A stretch of 64,000 nucleotides of DNA from Pyrinomonadaceae bacterium (GCA_036389675.1 DASVWI010000022.1:1112-65111), one strand, 5' to 3'. Counted from the stretch's first letter, positions 15,746 to 36,672 are shown. Numbers and translations: made by a program. Notes: generated by a model not told the origin, from the letters alone.

Positions 15746-17488
15746 ATGAAGATCGCTCGTAGATTGCTGCTCGCAGCGGTCGTGCTCATTCTACTGGCAG
15801 GCATCTGGCTCTGGTGGAACCGTTTCCAGAAGGTGGACATGGCGACCTATGTCCCAGCCGATACGCTCGTCTACATGGAAGCCAACAGCCTGCCGCAGAT
15901 CACGAGCGCCATCACTTCCACGGATGCCTGGACAGCGCTGGCCGGGCCAGCCGGTATCAGGACCGATCTGGGCCGGATTGGCTGGTTGAGCCGTCTGGCC
16001 CTGTGGACGGGGATTGGCCCGGCTGAGGCGGTGGTGTTTTCGCGCGCGCAGGTAGCCGTTGCCGTGATGGGTTTCGACGCGGCTGATGCTGGCGAAACCT
16101 TGAAGGTCAAGCCGCGTTATGCGGTCGTCGTTGAGACTCATACGAGCGCAGGGCGGGCGCGCTCTGCCGTCGAGAGCAGAATCGGGGATTTCGCGCGGCG
16201 CGCTTACAAAGAGCCGCGCTTTGAGCGCAGGCAGGTGGATGGAACAGATTTTTTGACGTGGAGCTCGCCGACGGATAAGAGACGCATCATCCTGGCCGTG
16301 TTAGAAAGCGTCGCAGTCATAGGCAATGATGAAGCTGCTGTGCGCGCTTGTCTGGCTGTCCGGCGCGGCGAGCGGCAAAATCTGGCGGGCGACGCACAGC
16401 TGGAAGAGATGCGCGAGCGCGTGGCCGGTAACGGGGCGCTCGCCTTCGGTTTTGTTTCGTCGAAGGGCGCGGCTCCGTTGCTGGAAGTCGCGGCGGCGAT
16501 CTATGTTGCACAGCTTTCGGAAGATCCGCGTATGCAGGGTGCGGCGGCGGTCGTCCTGCCGCAACTCGCGAGCAAGATACTGGGTGGCGCGGGGTGGAGC
16601 GCTCGCATGACGGGCGGCATAGTTGAAGACCGCTATTTTCTCTCGCTTCAAAACGGGGCGGCGGCACGCCTGCGTGCCCCTCTCGCATTCACTGATAAGG
16701 GGACGAACGTCGCCGGCGATCTATTGCCAGCCGATACCTATTCGATGTCACGCTACGAATCGGGCGACGCGGTGGCGGCATGGCGCGGCTTGAAGGGCGC
16801 GGTCATCTCGCAGCTGGACACGGTCGGCGCGTTCGTGGTTACGCGGCTTTCCGATACCCTGTTCAAGCCTTACGGGATTGACGAGCCGGAGACTTTTCTG
16901 CGCGCCGCCGGGCCTGAGTTCGTCACGGCGAGGTTGGACGATACGGGCACAAGCACGGTCATTATCGTAGAGGTGCGCGATGAAAAGGCGCTCAGAGAGT
17001 TGGTCTCCAGGAGGCTCGGCGCAGGGGCTGGAACGGAGCAGGTGGGCGATGCTTTAATGATGGTCTCGAAGGAAGAGGAGCGCGGCGCAGCCAGCTTCGT
17101 CGACGGGCGACTGGTTATGGGTGCGACACCTAATGTGCGCCGTTGTCTTGAAGCGCGCGCGAAGGGTCAGACGCTGAGCCGGGCCGATGCTTTCAAAGGG
17201 GCCGCCCGTCTTGCTTCGATGAACAGTGCGGCCAATGCTGTGACCTACACGGATGACAGGTTGTCGGCTCGCAACTTTATCACGGCGATTGCCATCCAGC
17301 GCGGGGCGAGCGTGAAGTCCTTCAACGAAACGGAAGTGGAGCGCTCGCTTGGTCAAATGCCTTACGCCGTCAGCGCAACGCGATTGTCCGAAGGAGGCTT
17401 CGAGAAGACTACGCGCTCATCCTTCGGGCAGTTCGGCGCGCTCGCCTCAGAGTTCGCGCCTGAGACTCAGTCCGGGCCGACGCGTTGA
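15746..17488 (+). CDS. membrane-anchored hypothetical protein, DUF3352-like
   Basis: N-terminal TM followed by YVPADTLVYMEANSL, typical of DUF3352 as I recall it. Shares blocks with the C-terminal half of the anti-sigma protein at 33145-35889. Confidence 0.6.
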   Translation: MKIARRLLLAAVVLILLAGIWLWWNRFQKVDMATYVPADTLVYMEANSLPQITSAITSTDAWTALAGPAGIRTDLGRIGWLSRLALWTGIGPAEAVVFSRAQVAVAVMGFDAADAGETLKVKPRYAVVVETHTSAGRARSAVESRIGDFARRAYKEPRFERRQVDGTDFLTWSSPTDKRRIILAVLESVAVIGNDEAAVRACLAVRRGERQNLAGDAQLEEMRERVAGNGALAFGFVSSKGAAPLLEVAAAIYVAQLSEDPRMQGAAAVVLPQLASKILGGAGWSARMTGGIVEDRYFLSLQNGAAARLRAPLAFTDKGTNVAGDLLPADTYSMSRYESGDAVAAWRGLKGAVISQLDTVGAFVVTRLSDTLFKPYGIDEPETFLRAAGPEFVTARLDDTGTSTVIIVEVRDEKALRELVSRRLGAGAGTEQVGDALMMVSKEEERGAASFVDGRLVMGATPNVRRCLEARAKGQTLSRADAFKGAARLASMNSAANAVTYTDDRLSARNFITAIAIQRGASVKSFNETEVERSLGQMPYAVSATRLSEGGFEKTTRSSFGQFGALASEFAPETQSGPTR

Positions 17489-29279: not shown

Positions 29280-29380
29280 AAGGCAAGGATGAAGGATGAA
29301 GGCGGAAGGATGAAAAGAATGCTTCTCTTTCTTGAGAGCTTTTACTTCATCCTTCATCCTTCATCCTTCATCCTTTATCT
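29280..29380. repeat. GGATGAA-arm hairpin element, type B, copy B1
   Basis: Left arm AAGGCAAGGATGAAGGATGAAGGCGGAAGGATGAA, right arm TTCATCCTTCATCCTTCATCCTTCATCCTTT. Fills the convergent gap 29271-29383. Confidence 0.75.
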
Positions 29381-29383
29381 TCT

Positions 29384-30250
29384 CTATTCCCCGCCGTACC
29401 TGATCTCCATCCGGCGAATCTGTAGACTGGCGAAAGCAAGCAGCAGCCCGGTCATGATTAAGAGGGTCGGGACGGCAACCCATGCCGGGGTCGGCTCGGC
29501 GACGATGGCGAATGGGCCTTCGGCGAGAGGAAGCGGCGAGAGCGATTGCAGGTAATGAATCACGCTCAGCTTTTTAAGGAGCGGCGGAAGCAGGAAGTTG
29601 ATGAACTCCCAACCATAGACGGCGAGCGCAGGGATAATGGGATTGCGAAAGAGCAAGCCTATCAGAAGAAAGACCGCGCCGTAGCCGGCGCACGCCAGAG
29701 CCGTGATCGCCAGATAGATGAGCGCGTACCTTAAGCCGTGCCCCTCGACAAGAAGTTTCATGCTGGCGCTGTAGCCTAGCGGCAGGTAGAGCAGTAGTAG
29801 CGAGACGGCTGTGGCCGAGACGAAAAGGATGAGCGAGGTCAGCAGGCCCGAAAGATATTTCCCGACGACCAGCACTTCCCTCCTGAGCGGCGAGAGAAAG
29901 TAATAGTGCAGGCTTCTGTCCACCACTTCGCCGCGAAAGAGATTCATAAATATCCAGGCGCAGCCGAAGAAGACGACCGTCCTCAGAATCAGTATCTCGT
30001 AGATGCCTGCGAACATCATGTTCAGGAAAGCCGGCTCGGCACGGCCTCCCACGTCCGGCGGAATCAGCGCTATCGCCGAGAACAGCAGGACGGGCAGCAG
30101 CGCGAGCAGGTAGATCAGTATGGCACGCCTGCCCCAGAAATTTTTCTTCACCTCAAGCCTGAGGATGGCAAGCACCTGCCGCATCCATAGAGTCCAGGGC
30201 AGCCCTTCCGCGGGCTTTGTGACGACGCTCGTGTCGGCCCGGCTGCTCAT
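29384..30250 (-). CDS. ABC-2 type permease-like membrane protein
   Basis: 288 aa with about 6 TM segments. 4-nt overlap with the upstream ATPase gene. Confidence 0.75.
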
Positions 30251-31203
30251 GACGGGTTGCCTCCTTCCGAACTGATCAGATATTGGTAGACGGCATTGAG
30301 ATCATCATCTACAGGCGCGACCGATTCGACGTTCAGGTTGTTTTCAAGCACGACGCGATTCAACAACAGGTAGAACTGGTCTGCGTCGCGTGTCTTGACA
30401 AAGAGGCCCTGGGCGTCGGTGTGCAGCCGCGCCTCGACCACAGCGTTGTGCTCGAAGACGCGTGCGGCCAGCACTCCCGGGCGGTCGCAACGGATGAGAA
30501 TCTGTATCGGGTGCTCGTCCATCTCGTCGCGCACGCCGTGAATATCACCCTCGGCGACGACATAACCGTTATTCAAGAGCACCACCTGATCCGACATCAT
30601 ATCAACTTCGTGCAGGATATGGCTCGAAATAACCAGATGTAGACCTTCCGAGGCGAGCTGACGAAAGAGGTTGATGGTTTCGGCGCGCGCCATCGGGTCA
30701 AGGCCGTTCAGAGGCTCGTCAAGAATCAGGACGGTCGGCCCGTGCGCGATAGACTGGGCCAAGCGTATGCGCTGGCGCATTCCCTTGCTATAGCCCGCCA
30801 CTTTTCTATTGGCAGCATCGGTCAGACCGACGCGCTCAAGCGCTTTGGCGCTCATCTCTTCGGACTCCCCGCGCGTGTAGCCCTGCACGCCCAGAAAAGA
30901 GGAGATGAACTGGCGACCCGTCAGCCCACCGGGGAAAGAATCGAACTGCGAGCAGTAGCCGACCTTGCGAAAAAGCTGTTCGGGCCGGTCGGGCTCTATG
31001 CCCAGAACACTGATGCGACCGCGCGTCGGGCGCAGCAGCCCCGTCATCAGATTCATGAGCGTAGTCTTGCCGGAGCCGTTTGGGCCAACGAGGCTCGTGA
31101 TGCCCGGCGCAATCGACAGATTGACGCGATTGACGCCGAGTATCTCGCCGTAGAATTTCGAGACATCGTCAAAGACGATCATCTGTGCAGAGGTTTCGTT
31201 CAT
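30247..31203 (-). CDS. ABC transporter ATP-binding protein
   Basis: Start trimmed to [11 protein letters not shown] (ATG at 31203, ATGA overlap with the upstream stop). Walker [10 protein letters not shown], signature YSKGMRQR, Walker B LILDEP. Confidence 0.85.
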
Positions 31204-32117
31204 CCGCGCACCACCTCGTAGGCTCGTACCCGGCGCGCGATCACTATCAGGCAGACCGCCGCGATCAGGAAGAGGACGAACCATGCCGTCCAGAGCGGCG
31301 GCTCCATCAGCACGATGTTCACGTCGCGCCCGTTGATCGTTCCCTGTATGTGGCCCGTCTGCCGCACGAAGATTCCGAACAACTGCGCCCACACGGCCCT
31401 CACGACGGCGCGCAGCGAGAGCAGATTCCCCCACCGCGTCATAAAGATGTTATTGATGATCTCCCCGAAGACCGAAGGGATGAAGAAGATGCCGAGCAGC
31501 GCGGCGCTCGCCGCCAGCCGCCACTTGACCAGCGCCGAGATGGCCTGCGACAGCAGCGCCAGCACAATGATCCACACCCAGCTTCCGAGAAAGATAGCGC
31601 CCGCCAGCTTGAGGTTCGCGGTAAACCACCCCAAGCCTCCCAGATAAGACTGGAACAGGAAGAGTAGAAGGCCCGGTATCCATGTGATCACCGACAGCAG
31701 TATAAAGACGACGGACATCTTGCCCAGCACATACTCGGCGCGCGTAAATGGCCTGCACAGGTAGAGCGGGAGCGCGTTGTTGGACAGGTCGCGCGAGATG
31801 AGGGGCGGGCCGACCAGCAGGTTGAGAAAGAAACCGAAGAAGCCCTGAGTGGCGACGAACGTGTAAAAGAAGTCTGCGTCAATCGGTATCAGGTCGCCAA
31901 TCGTCATCTTCATAATCGCCTTCGCGCTCTCGTTGTGCGGAAGGTAGATGACGATGGCCGCGATCAGCGGGTAGATCAGGCAGGCGACGAAGAAGGCGAT
32001 GAAGAACTTGGATTGAAAGACGCCCTGCAAGGCATGGCGCGGCAGTATCAGGAAGCGCGACCACAGCGGCGTCACTTCGCCCGCGTAGGGCCTGTAAGTG
32101 TGCTCATAAACTGCCAT
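31200..32117 (-). CDS. ABC-2 type permease-like membrane protein
   Basis: 305 aa, multi-TM. Overlaps both neighbouring genes. Confidence 0.7.
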
Positions 32118-33033
32118 TGCCGTCCTCCATCGCCTTGAGGAAGATGTCTTCCAGAGAATCCCGCTTGAAGTTGAGCCGCCTGATCTGCACCTTGCGCTCC
32201 GCAGCCATGCGATAGAGGTCTGTAATCTCGACGCCGTTCTGCAGGACGAGCTTGACGCGGTGGTTGCCCGAGAGCGCGTACTCGCAGCCCGTGCGCGCGA
32301 TGGCCTCGACGAAAGAGACGCCGTCGCCGCGAATCTCCATCTCTAAGAATTTACGGTTGGCGCGGCGCTCCGCTTCGAGATTACAGTTGGCGACGATGCG
32401 CCCGTCTTTCAGAATCAGAATCTCTTCGCAGCATTCCTCGACATCCCTCAGAAGGTGCGAGGAGAGCAGTATGTTGGCCTCGCCGCTGTCTCGTATCTCG
32501 CGTATGAGGCGAATCATGCGCAGGCGCGTCGGCGGGTCGAGCCCGTTGGTCGGCTCGTCAAGGATGATCAGCTTTGGCCCGTGGACGATGGCCTGCGCCA
32601 GCTTGGCAAGTTGCTTCATCCCGAGCGAGTAGGTGTCCAGAGTGCGGTAGCGCGCCTCTCCCAATCCGACGTAAAAGAGCGCTTCGTGTGCCCTCTCAAG
32701 CGCGGCCTCGCCGGGCAGGCCCGAAAGCTCCGCCATCATGCTGACGAAATGCACACAGGTCATGCGCGCGATGAAGGAATCGCGCTCGGGCATAAAGCCT
32801 ATGAGGGCACGAATACGCTTGGCGTCTCGCTTGATGTCTTCGCCGAAGATGTGCGCCGTGCCGGTCGAGGGCGGGTGAAATCCGAGCAGGGTGTGAATGA
32901 GCGTAGTCTTGCCAGCGCCGTTTGGCCCAAGCAGGCCGATGGAGCGCCCGGCCAGCGTGCCGCGCAGGTCTTTGAGGATGGGGCGACCGCCGAACTGCAC
33001 TCCCAATCCATCGAGGGTGATAACCGGATTCAT
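32104..33033 (-). CDS. ABC transporter ATP-binding protein
   Basis: Walker [10 protein letters not shown], signature YSLGMKQL, Walker B LIILDEP. Start probably MNPVITLDG (33033) rather than 33072. Confidence 0.85.
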
Positions 33034-33144
33034 CAGAAGTTGATTCTCTGTCTCTCTCGCCACAAAGGTCAAGCACAGCCAGCGAGCCAGCCGGGGATGG
33101 CGAACGCTAAGCTCGCTTCCCCCGGCTGGCGCACATGACTGACT

Positions 33145-35889
33145 TTAAGGCTTCGCCGTCTTCCCTTCCATCGCCTCGTGCATGATGTGCTGAAGGGCGA
33201 AGGCGTTCGGCAACCCGAGAAGACTGGTCGGGCTCAGACCGAAGGGGCCGCCCTCCGTGTTTGAAGCAAGCACGATCCGGTCGCCGGAAGCGTAGGCATA
33301 GGCGAGGGTCGGCGGCGCGTTAGCGCCCATCGCGCGGATGGCCTGCTGCTGATCCGCGGGCAGGCTCTGGGATTTAGCCATGCGCTCGGCCAGCGGCTCG
33401 ATCAGGGGCGCGAGGTCATGATAAAGGAGCGCCGAGAAATTAGCATTGCCGTCGGTGGGCAACTGTGCCTTGAAGCGCGGTGAGCTCAGCAGCGTATAGC
33501 CCGACTCACGATAGCTCAAGGCGCGATCAACCAGCGCGCGGCTCGGCGCGGCCACGAGGTAGCCGTCTGCGTAAGCGTAGTGAACCTCCAGCCCGAAGTC
33601 CACCGATTTGAGCGCGTAGAAGGTGCGCCCGCCCGATTCCGTGCGTTCCCAACGCAGACCGCCCTTGCCTTCTTTCGCGGCCCACTGGTTCAACTGCTCC
33701 ACCACGCGCTCGAAGGTCTGCTGCAAGCGCGCCTGATCGTAGACCTCGAAAACCATCTTCCATGAAGGCGCGGGAAGGATAGGCCCGTCAATGGCGAAGG
33801 CGAACTCGCCGCCGAGCGGAGCGGCGAAATCGTTGCGTATATTCAAGCCCTGTTTCGCCTCCATCTCCTGCAAGGTTTTCCGCAGGTCGGGCGAAGTCGT
33901 CTCGACGAATCCGAGCAGGTCGTCCACGAGCGCCGTCGGTTCCTTGACGACGAAGGCCGAGACCACGTTGGCGTTGGGCGAGACGTATTGCAGCGCCCCC
34001 ATGGGGCCGGGCGCGGCGAGCCATGAGGCTATGCCGTGTTGCTGCCCTTCGGTGAAGGTCAGGCTGGCGCGACTCTGCGTCCTGCCGTCCTTCTCCCTTT
34101 GCTCGACGATGAAGTGCCTGAGGTCGAGCAGGCCCAGCTTGCGATAGCCCTCGATGCGCGCGGCCTCTTCCTGCGATTTCGCGCCATCGCTGACGGCGCG
34201 GGCGATGATCTTTTCAAGGTCGGCGGCGACGATCAGACCAGCCCCTTCCTGATACAGCTCGTTGATGCGGGTATAGAAGGGCGTGCCGACGAAACCGTTC
34301 GTGCCCGCAGACCCGCCGGTCGCCTGAAGTCTTTGCAGTTGCTCAAGGCTCGGAGCAGCGGCGAAGAAATCGTTCTGAATCCAGATCAGTAATTCGGCGG
34401 GCGGCCCTTTAGCCTCCGTCGTCGCGGGAGCCGGAGCGGCTGTCGTGTTGGCCGGGTCGTCAATGAGACGAACCTTCGGCCCGTTTTTGGATAAGAGGTT
34501 GATCGCCTTGATCTGCTGCTCGATGTAGGGGCGGAAGCCCGCGGAGTTTTTCAGCGCGCCGAGCACAAGGATGTTGTCGGGCTCGCCCTTCTCGTTCATC
34601 TGTGCGGAGACGACGATCTCGTCGCCCAGGTATTCGCCGAACTCGCGAATCTGTCCGATCATCTGATCGAGTCTCGGCCCGCCGCGCTCTTTCGCGTGCT
34701 CGCTCTCCCACCACTGGCGGAGCGCCGGATTCTGGTTGATGCGCTCCTGCATAATCTTGTGCGACTCGCTGAGGGTCACGCTCAGGTTCGGCAGCGCGGC
34801 ATAGAGCACAGTGCCTTCGGGCAGGAGGCCGAGAAAGCGCGTGGAGAAACGCAGCTCCGGCTGTGAGACCTTGCGGTCTACTTCCTGATGAAGCTGTGCC
34901 AGCTCCGATAAGAGCTTGACGTACTTCGTGGACTGGCGACTCCAGGCTATCTCGTCCTTGATGGGCACGAGCTCAAGGCTCGCCTGCGTCGTCGTCTGAT
35001 CGCCCGGATGCAGCACGCGCTCCGTCCCGGCGTGATTGACATGAACCTCGCCCTCGACGACCGAGACGCGCGAGCCCTTCGTCCCGCTGTTGACGGAGAA
35101 GATGGTTCCCGTCACGGAGACCAGAGAGTCAGGCGTGGAGACATAGAGATGACGCTCGCGCTGCTTGGCGGCCTGCACGATCACGTTCCCGCGATCAAGG
35201 TGGACGGTCACGCCGTCAGAGTTTTCAGAGACGTAGAACTCCGAGCGCTCTTTGGTCTCGATGAGCGAGCCGTCCTCAAGTCGCAGCACGGCGTAAGCGT
35301 CTTTGGCCGTGCGTATCTTCTCGCCGCGCGCCAGTTCTTCGCCGACCTTGAGAGCGCGGCTCTGCGTGTCCGAGACTCTAAAGACATCGCCGTTCACCTC
35401 TAAGAGGGTGACGCGCGCCGCGCCCGTATTGGAGTAACGCTGGAAGATTGTGAAAGCACCGAGGGCGAACCCGACCACCAGGACGGCGGCCACGGCCCAG
35501 CGCCACGTGCCTTGCGACGAGATCACAGCGGGGGTGTCTTGACCGCTCGCGGCGAACGTGTCCGGCGCGGGGCGCTTCGTGCGCGCCTGCTTTAAGGCTT
35601 TGCGGCAGGGGATGCACTCGTGCGTGTGGTCTTCCAGCAGTAAAGAGCGCGCCGGTGACAACTGGCCGCGCAGGTAAGCCGGGATGAGCGTCTGGAAATC
35701 GGCGCATCCTTCGATCAGTTCGGCCTGCGCGTCTTCGACCTGACCGGCAAGCGCGACACTCGTGCGCTCCGCCGAAAGGCGCGACCAGACACGCTCCGCC
35801 GCTTGATCGACGATGGCCGAATCGATCTCCTCGTTTCGTATCGCTTCGGTCACTCTATCCAGAACAGTGTCAGTCTCATTATGCTTCAT
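33145..35889 (-). CDS. anti-sigma factor: zf-HC2, TM, FecR domain, large DUF3352-like extracytoplasmic domain
   Basis: [10 protein letters not shown] (H-x3-C-x2-C), [23 protein letters not shown], FecR-like beta region (GDVFRV...[18 protein letters not shown]), then about 550 aa resembling the 15746-17488 product. 11-nt overlap with the sigma gene. Confidence 0.75.
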
Positions 35890-36433
35890 GATGTTTCTCC
35901 AAATACTGGCCGATCTCTTTGCGCAGGCGTGCGCGCGAGCGATGCAGGATCACGGCGACGACCATCTGCGACGTGCCGAGCATCTCGGCTATCTCGCGAT
36001 TGTCGTAGCCCTCGAAATAACGTAGCGCGAAGAATTCCGCCGCCTTTGGCCCGAGCCGTGTGACCGCCTGCCGTATCAGGAGGCGCAGCTCTCTATCGGC
36101 ATGCCTTGCTTCCGGGCCTGAATCACTGCTGGCGAGCATCTCCGGCTCAATCTCTTCGAGAGTGAGCGAGGTGCGACGGCTGCGCAGGAGGTCTAACGAG
36201 GCGTTGACGGCAGCGCGCACAAGATAGGCCGCAGGGCTCGGCGCGAAATCGTATCCCTGCTTGCGCCGCATGAGGCGAAGAAAGACGGTTTGCAGCACGT
36301 CCTCTGCGTCCGAGGCGCTACCCGTCACCCTGTATGCGGTGCGGTAAATTTGTTCGTTATGCTGGCGAAACAGGCTCTCCAACTCGTCCGGCGGATTGGG
36401 GAGCGGTCGCAAATGCGCGGCTGTGGCTGGCAC
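35879..36433 (-). CDS. ECF-type RNA polymerase sigma factor
   Basis: Region 2 (YRTAYRVTGSASDAEDVLQTVFLRL) and region 4 (REIAEMLGTSQMVVAVILHRSRARLR). I prefer the GTG at 36433, 5 nt after an AAGGAGG SD, over 36448. Confidence 0.85.
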   Translation of the reverse strand: MPATAAHLRPLPNPPDELESLFRQHNEQIYRTAYRVTGSASDAEDVLQTVFLRLMRRKQGYDFAPSPAAYLVRAAVNASLDLLRSRRTSLTLEEIEPEMLASSDSGPEARHADRELRLLIRQAVTRLGPKAAEFFALRYFEGYDNREIAEMLGTSQMVVAVILHRSRARLRKEIGQYLEKHHEA

Positions 36434-36672
36434 GTTATCCTCCTTCACGGCGGTCTCTACCTTTATTAACGTTCGCCACGGGAAATTATTAACACCTGCG
36501 GGAAATTATTTTTTTTCAGCTCAAATATTTTCGCCCGTTCCGGCGCTCATCTGTCTTTCGGCCAACCAAATATATCAGGTTAGCCGCGGGTCGTCCGAGG
36601 CGGCCTCAAAACAGCGGCGCGCAGCGTCGTTTTGACCCTCGAAGATTCTTCACGACGAGCCGATATATTTCA

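Follow-up and report, generated by a model that had tools for sequence, protein, structure and literature searches.

A six-gene locus in a 64,000-nucleotide stretch of DNA from a Pyrinomonadaceae bacterium (GCA_036389675.1 DASVWI010000022.1:1112-65111), the whole of which is called the window in the following, raises the question of whether an extracytoplasmic function (ECF) sigma factor and its anti-sigma factor control the ATP-binding cassette (ABC) transporter encoded by the four genes behind them. ORF calls on the window placed six co-directional open reading frames on the minus strand, for the sigma factor, the anti-sigma factor, and the proteins named here ATPase1, permease1, ATPase2, and permease2. 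A first-pass annotation of the sequence had interpreted this module as an envelope-signal circuit that induces its own exporter. Of this proposal, the connection between the two halves was borne out by synteny, co-occurrence, and the promoter, but that the sigma factor induces the exporter is a step that we only infer. The reading considered fairly likely is that of an envelope-sensing, autoregulated ECF circuit, which is coupled to a dedicated type V exporter and conserved across the Acidobacteriota.

The host is a soil acidobacterium, which the names of close homologues assign to the Pyrinomonadaceae, in the Blastocatellia of the Acidobacteriota. In a survey of 301 Acidobacteriota genomes, homologues of permease2 were present in 132. 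Around the stronger permease2 matches, 20 loci were fetched, which together with the window gave 21 loci for comparison. All 20 fetched loci, which came from many families, contained the genes in the order sigma factor, anti-sigma factor, ATPase1, permease1, ATPase2, and permease2, and the same six-gene order was found in most Blastocatellia loci having sufficient flank. The anti-sigma factor occurred in 57 genomes, a permease2 of class A in 59, and both in 55, so that both parts were together in 55 of the 61 genomes with either of them. In 52 of these 55 genomes, the two genes were at most 7 kb apart on one contig, and the exceptions were fragmented assemblies. The module was present in about one-fifth of the sampled genomes and in 43 genera. 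Flanking genes for GntR-like, ABC-F, DUF4440, and TPR proteins were kept only in the five closest relatives of the window, that is, at the level of the genus. A gene order limited to close relatives had been named in the first-pass annotation as a reason to abandon the proposal; the neighborhood survey found the order phylum-wide instead. These neighborhoods argue that the module is a real functional unit across the Acidobacteriota.

The sigma factor contains only the sigma-2 and sigma-4 regions, as represented by the Pfam domains Sigma70_r2 (PF04542) and Sigma70_r4_2 (PF08281), and it matched the general ECF model, which places it into the ECF sigma factors (group 4). The score against TIGR02937 was 109.9 bits at a cut-off of 42.9, and the protein was 32% identical to FecI of Escherichia coli (E = 3e-12). 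Upstream of the sigma factor gene, a motif TGTTAAT-N16/17-CGT[TC]T was present across the phylum in 19 of the 21 loci, in a single copy per locus. In the window, the promoter was composed of TGTTAA (36494-36489), a 17-nt spacer, and CGTTAA (36471-36466). A CGT in the −10 element is a hallmark of ECF promoters, and the motif as a whole is presumably similar to the iron-starvation sigma factor box TAAAT-N16-CGT. When the window's own genome was scanned loosely, 25 matches were returned, about as many as would arise by chance; the site ahead of the sigma factor gene was the only one to fit the extended consensus, and no other convincing ECF-motif site was found in this genome. The sigma factor would act on its own TGTTAAT-N16-CGTYT promoter, which means autoregulation, as judged from the conserved motif. 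A direct repeat, TAATAATTTCCCG, was also present twice ahead of the sigma factor gene at 36487-36520. Of the two copies, the downstream one overlaps with the −35 element and the spacer of the conserved ECF promoter, and the upstream one had no counterpart in other families.

The junctions between the genes (Table 1) were partly as annotated before. The overlaps of 11 nt between the sigma and anti-sigma factor genes, 14 nt between ATPase1 and permease1, and 4 nt at both the permease1/ATPase2 and the ATPase2/permease2 junctions were correct. A fifth overlap of 4 nt, between the anti-sigma factor gene and ATPase1, had also been claimed; at this position, there is a 111-nt spacer, or 72 nt if an upstream TTG is used as the start codon. 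Translational coupling of all six genes does not hold in this genome, owing to the spacer, but it does in some other lineages. Because the spacer with its hairpin and its sigma-70-like promoter splits the anti-sigma factor gene from ATPase1, the block in this genome reads as two plus four genes. Across the loci, the distance between the anti-sigma factor gene and ATPase1 ranged from −4 to 2121 nt, and the 14-nt overlap of ATPase1 and permease1 was found in 17 of the 21 loci, namely the window and 16 of the 20 fetched ones. In four loci (L037, L045, L048, and L049), all five junctions either overlapped or were 3 to 7 nt apart, and co-transcription is therefore forced there. Strong support for a functional link of the sigma/anti-sigma pair to the four ABC genes comes from the order, which is conserved phylum-wide, from near-perfect co-occurrence, from the ECF-type promoter, and from the overlapping junctions of several lineages.

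Table 1. Features of the module and related elements, with positions in the window
Feature	Position	Strand	Remarks
ECF sigma factor gene	35879-36433	minus	Probable GTG start at 36433 with AAGGAGG ahead; longest ORF from 36448
Anti-sigma factor gene	33145-35889	minus	914 aa; ZAS, transmembrane helix, FecR, and DUF3352
ATPase1 gene	32104-33033	minus	ABC ATPase, DrrA-like
permease1 gene	31200-32117	minus	ABC-2 permease, PF12679 ABC2_membrane_2
ATPase2 gene	30247-31203	minus	ABC ATPase, DrrA-like, canonical motifs
permease2 gene	29384-30250	minus	ABC-2 (type V) fold in AF2 model; no curated family
ECF-type promoter ahead of sigma factor gene	36466-36494	minus	Motif conserved in 19 of 21 loci
GC-rich stem-loop after anti-sigma factor gene	33086-33130	minus	Fold energy −62.5 kcal/mol, z −4.68
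Sigma-70-like promoter candidate TTGACC-N18-GAGAAT	33043-33072	minus	Consensus scan
Hairpin of (GGATGAA)n inverted repeats	29280-29378	.	Fold energy −59.2 kcal/mol, z −7.9
Free-standing DUF3352 protein	15746-17488	plus	Outside the module; homologous to outer domain of the anti-sigma factor

The putative sensor of the circuit is the anti-sigma factor. The composition given for it in the first-pass annotation, a zf-HC2 domain, a transmembrane helix, a FecR domain, and an outer region of about 550 residues, agreed with the Pfam matches and with an AlphaFold2 (AF2) model (predicted local distance difference test, pLDDT, of 76). The model contained a helical N-terminal domain, a single transmembrane helix at residues 129-152, a beta-rich FecR part, a linker helix, and a large alpha/beta domain. 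The matches were zf-HC2 at residues 62-96 (24.5 bits, cut-off 22.2), FecR (PF04773) at 191-282 (E = 7.9e-16), and DUF3352 (PF11832) at 667-853 (31.6 bits, cut-off 26.8; model positions 332-512). The resulting bounds were approximately 160-300 for FecR and, after the linker helix, approximately 345-880 for a complete DUF3352 in the outer part. In a phylum-wide alignment, the residues C62, H88, C92, and C95, of which the last three form H88-x3-C92-x2-C95, were invariant in all 20 anti-sigma factors, so the N terminus has the signature of a zinc-binding anti-sigma (ZAS) domain and is predicted to bind zinc; many further residues were invariant along the periplasmic part. The FecR part of the model was matched by Foldseek to the cell-surface signaling domain of PupR and to BDI_1681 (E = 2e-5). 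Moreover, the invariant G261-T262 aligned exactly with G181-T182 of E. coli FecR (hhalign), which is the published self-cleavage site of this protein (PMC8144685). The Gly-Thr self-cleavage motif is kept in the anti-sigma factor, which may be cleaved there. One orthologue from a genome of the same family (G137:C28:57612-60302) contained a single in-frame TGA, which marks it as a pseudogene unless a sequencing error is the cause.

The outer region had been suggested to be related to the free-standing protein listed last in Table 1. A pairwise comparison of the two proteins gave no clear relation (BLASTP, E = 0.2), and the free-standing protein itself had no Pfam match; a profile comparison nevertheless confirmed the relationship (hhalign probability 95.8%, E = 6.9e-9, 479 columns), and 10 of 20 orthologues of the free-standing protein matched PF11832. 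The latter has a hydrophobic N terminus and is read as N-terminally anchored, and this DUF3352 paralogue was present in all 41 Blastocatellia genomes sampled, including those without the module. The best Foldseek match of the DUF3352 part was the Treponema lipoprotein TP0453, and it was a weak one (E = 3.8e-3, TM 0.37, root mean square deviation 10.9). TP0453 has an alpha/beta/alpha fold and is proposed to be a lipid carrier (PMC5421087). A profile search of the PDB with permease1, permease2, the anti-sigma factor, and the free DUF3352 protein returned matches for the FecR and ChrR parts only and none for DUF3352 or the permeases, and no publication mentioning DUF3352 was found in the literature search. 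Among the control genomes, those of Synechococcus elongatus and Bacteroides thetaiotaomicron encoded DUF3352 proteins with scores exceeding the Pfam cut-off.

The four genes of the second half code for two different ABC ATPases alternating with two different ABC-2-like permeases, as had been annotated; the domains and the predicted fold agree with this order. ATPase1 and ATPase2 matched ABC_tran (E = 2.7e-26 and 6.4e-29, respectively), scored 193 bits (below the cut-off) and 180.7 bits against TIGR01188, and were 36% identical to each other. The Walker A, Walker B, and H-loop motifs were intact in both, the signature motif was S-x-G-M-[KR]-Q in both, and all motifs of ATPase2 were canonical. 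In the Q-loop of ATPase1 (32800-32830), the glutamine was replaced by glutamate (“MPE”) in 21 of 21 orthologues, whereas ATPase2 retains the glutamine. Permease1 scored barely above the cut-off of PF12679 (ABC2_membrane_2; 27.8 versus 27.2 bits), and permease2 did not match any family in Pfam and NCBIfam. The two permeases are distantly paralogous to each other, with an alignment that extends over the entire length (hhalign, E = 3e-4). The AF2 model of permease2 (pLDDT 82.7, predicted TM score 0.82) was closest to NosY (TM 0.65-0.73, 18 to 20% identity), followed by ABCG2, KpsM, Wzm, CcmB, and PmtD, with a Foldseek probability of 1.0 for NosY, ABCG2, KpsM, Wzm, and PmtD. The modeled fold of permease2, the PF12679 match of permease1, and the ATPase motifs assign the predicted transporter to the type V (ABC-2) exporters. 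The permease2 family was small, with 1879 representatives (E ≤ 1e-3) among 1.84 billion proteins. In several other Acidobacteriota families (L060:8654-10366, L061, L062, and L063), permease2 was a 570-aa protein with an insertion of about 300 residues in the first periplasmic loop, which had no clear Pfam match and only a faint BamE-like start.

The weaker permease2 matches defined a second, class B cassette (L051 to L059 and L067 to L070) with the same alternation of ATPase and permease genes and a permease2 of about 30% identity. It lacks the sigma and anti-sigma factor genes and adjoins tsaD, mtnA, NUDIX, and HD-domain genes. The genomes carried a class A or a class B cassette, never both.

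A heteromeric four-protein exporter is plausible, its subunit stoichiometry being presumed. Instead of one heteromeric complex, the genes could give rise to two homodimeric exporters that are independent of each other, ATPase1(2)-permease1(2) and ATPase2(2)-permease2(2), a possibility that appears somewhat unlikely. The layout of the genes as two ATPase-permease pairs, with the 14-nt overlap of the first pair conserved, would fit it, and the solved structure of PmtCD, from the alternating pmtABCD genes, is that of a single pair in a C2-symmetric complex (entries 6xjh and 9q1y). However, both pairs were always together and in the same order, in class A as well as in class B cassettes, and the invariant glutamine-to-glutamate exchange in the Q-loop of ATPase1 next to a canonical ATPase2 is an asymmetry typical of heterodimeric ABC ATPases.

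Taken together, the envelope-sensing circuit may operate as follows. The ECF sigma factor would be held at the membrane by the ZAS domain at the N terminus of the anti-sigma factor, which continues into a FecR-type periplasmic stalk and then into DUF3352, located in place of the part that contacts a TonB-dependent receptor. An envelope cue sensed by DUF3352 would lead to regulated proteolysis of the anti-sigma factor and release of the sigma factor, which would fire its own promoter, with transcription continuing into the four exporter genes. The exporter with its two ATPase/permease pairs would remove or relocate the offending or signaling compound, provided that the direction of transport is outward as assumed. 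In this genome and its closest relatives, there would probably be basal expression of the exporter, with sigma-dependent read-through on top of it.

Several observations weigh against this scheme and concern mostly the link to the exporter genes. The stem-loop in the window begins 15 nt past the stop codon of the anti-sigma factor gene; it is GC-rich, has no clear U tract, and is probably a leaky terminator, an attenuator, or a stabilizer. The sequence TTGACC-N18-GAGAAT ends 9 nt ahead of the ATG of ATPase1, and this segment is shared by the window and four of the five relatives nearest to it, in contrast to the neighboring hairpin sequence, which diverged. Selective conservation of this kind suggests that the segment acts, in this genus, as an internal promoter or in the initiation of translation. 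Since the halves are parted here by a hairpin and a conserved sigma-70-like promoter, the ABC genes may be expressed at least partly independently of the sigma factor in this genome. An ECF motif ahead of ATPase1 was absent from every locus scanned, even from those with spacers of 0.4 to 2.1 kb, and sigma-dependence of the exporter in the Blastocatellia is therefore uncertain. The class B four-gene cassette appears to work without the sigma/anti-sigma pair in other families. On the sensory side, the ligand hint from the TP0453 model match is weak, and a hydrophobic or lipid-like cue is a weak guess.

The adjacency might also be incidental, with the sigma/anti-sigma pair and the ABC genes being unrelated neighbors that possess their own promoters and functions. 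The 111-nt spacer with its hairpin and sigma-70-like promoter and the missing ECF motif before ATPase1 could be explained in this way. It would leave unexplained, however, why the order was kept in dozens of genera throughout the phylum while the flanking genes were kept only within the genus, why the parts co-occurred in 55 of the 61 genomes with either of them, and why the genes overlap in several lineages. The synteny data make incidental adjacency very unlikely, to the point that it would be a great surprise. Most loci with a spacer contained a GC-rich hairpin at the same place, with unrelated, lineage-specific sequences. A short spacer, such as the one of 58 nt in L042, leaves no room for a promoter beyond the hairpin, which must therefore be read through there. 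The long spacers in some Blastocatellia (L032:5072-5605, L034:5270-5700, L031:4178-6298, and L036:4945-6058) cover 0.4 to 2.1 kb, and the sequences of those in L032 and L034 appear to encode a small hydrophobic protein.

Alternatively, the transporter may itself be a part of the sensor. In that case, DUF3352 of the anti-sigma factor would join the ABC-2 complex in a single assembly facing the periplasm, and the sigma factor would report the activity or load of the transporter, mainly in order to set the amount of that assembly or the expression of genes elsewhere. Models for such an arrangement are NosD with NosFY, and BceAB with BceS in flux sensing. This would account for the near-perfect adjacency and co-occurrence even where the halves look like separate transcription units. 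Both permeases lack a sizeable periplasmic domain in this genome, and the anti-sigma factor has one of 550 residues; NosY, to which permease2 is structurally closest, operates together with a large periplasmic partner, and the permease2 of some families gained the periplasmic insertion of about 300 residues. On the other hand, the class B cassette exists without a DUF3352 anti-sigma factor, and no additional targets of the sigma factor were found in the window's own genome. On balance, a sensor complex of this kind is unlikely. Regarded as distinctly unlikely is the possibility that DUF3352 handles lipids or glycolipids in the periplasm and docks, as a module, on the exporter with its two pairs, the anti-sigma factor thereby reading the export load directly. 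If true, this would represent ECF flux sensing without an outer-membrane receptor, exerted on an Acidobacteriota-specific envelope-lipid exporter, and the universal free-standing DUF3352 paralogue would serve as a constitutive carrier.

The envelope-sensing circuit with its own exporter needs to be compared with known systems. The sigY-yxlCDEFG operon of Bacillus subtilis (SigY type, ECF31) contains six genes, among them those for an ECF sigma factor, the membrane-bound anti-sigma factor YxlC, and the ABC-2 transporter YxlFG, and it is autoregulated from the promoter of the sigma factor gene. The likeness to the module, six genes with an ECF sigma factor, an anti-sigma factor, and a type V/ABC-2 transporter, is one of architecture only. 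The operon belongs to another phylum, YxlC is small and has neither FecR nor DUF3352, and the operon encodes a single ATPase/permease pair along with two small membrane proteins instead of two pairs. YxlF2G2 appears among the type V exporters of unknown function in PMC11466899. The Firmicute group ECF258 is noted as associated with ABC transporters (PMC7826278), and the main text of the ECF reclassification paper did not describe the gene context found here. The statement of the first-pass annotation that this is not a described system is correct for the exact module, no publication mentioning DUF3352, but not for the general design, which is known from sigY-yxlCDEFG.

With FecI/FecR/FecA, the module shares a periplasmic FecR domain, as indicated by Pfam and the PupR-like fold, the Gly-Thr site, and a distantly FecI-like sigma factor. 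It differs by the DUF3352 located C-terminally of FecR, by the ZAS N terminus, and by an ABC exporter as the output rather than an uptake system, and no gene for a TonB-dependent receptor was present among the six module genes or near the module. The predicted fold of permease2 is closest to that of NosY, and the ATPases belong to the same broad ABC-2 class as those of NosDFY, but there are two different ATPase/permease pairs here. Membership in the NosDFY systems was rejected, with NosD, NosL, and NosZ absent from the module and its flanks and no Nos model among the NCBIfam matches. PmtABCD of Staphylococcus, the exporter of phenol-soluble modulins, has the same alternating ATPase/permease order and the type V fold, with PmtD among the structural matches, but the regulator here is an ECF sigma/anti-sigma pair and not PmtR; the ATPases reached about 91 bits against the PmtA and PmtC models NF047565 and NF047568, the cut-offs of which are 350 and 375, and this membership was rejected as well. 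DrrA/GldA-like ATPases and permeases of the ABC2_membrane_2 type are also features of the gliding-motility system GldAFG, but the TIGR03522 scores were 163.7 and 145.6 bits versus a cut-off of 402.6, and there was no GldG-like auxiliary protein. Lantibiotic-immunity and NodI memberships were dismissed at scores far below the curated cut-offs. The permeases do not belong to Nos or Gld, families that the first-pass annotation had named as an explanation that would refute its proposal; scores against the curated Nos and Gld models were far below the cut-offs. A screen with the PADLOC models for anti-phage defense returned generic ATPase similarities only.

An operon with an ECF sigma factor, an anti-sigma factor, and an ABC-2 transporter is already known, going by the analogy to the Bacillus system; what is new here is the combination of ZAS, FecR, and DUF3352, the double set of ATPase and permease, and the taxon. 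Acidobacteriota rank with the most abundant bacteria of soils, and to our knowledge, their sensing of envelope stress is almost unexplored. The sharply defined promoter motif is a handle for definition of the regulon in the few cultured species. The module would be the first tie of DUF3352, a domain without literature or solved structure, to a signaling role, and it is an example of a FecR-type anti-sigma factor that is used without a TonB-dependent receptor, while permease2 establishes a hitherto unannotated family of permeases among the type V ABC exporters. S. elongatus and B. thetaiotaomicron as carriers of DUF3352 are model organisms, and genetic data on the domain may already exist.

Outside the six genes, the divergent GntR-like and ABC-F genes were considered as partners of the module in the manner of PmtR or YtrA and were rejected, both being present only in the five closest relatives. 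The 80 best loci from a contig scan were all Blastocatellia-like. Four permease2 loci (L096, L111, L114, and L147) came from metagenome-assembled genomes labeled Clostridia, Gammaproteobacteria, and Heliobacteriaceae, and they were 60 to 66% identical to that of the window; these are probably mis-binned acidobacterial contigs. Directly 3′ of the permease2 stop codon, between the convergent permease2 and DUF4440 genes, the GGATGAA hairpin is near-perfect and built from tandem units; it probably marks the 3′ terminus of the unit and serves as a terminator in both directions. Repeats of the type GGGATGA, akin to the units of this hairpin, fill the spacer between the anti-sigma factor gene and ATPase1 in one relative (L035), and by their sequences, the GGATGAA/GGGATGA hairpins look like a dispersed family of palindromic repeats.

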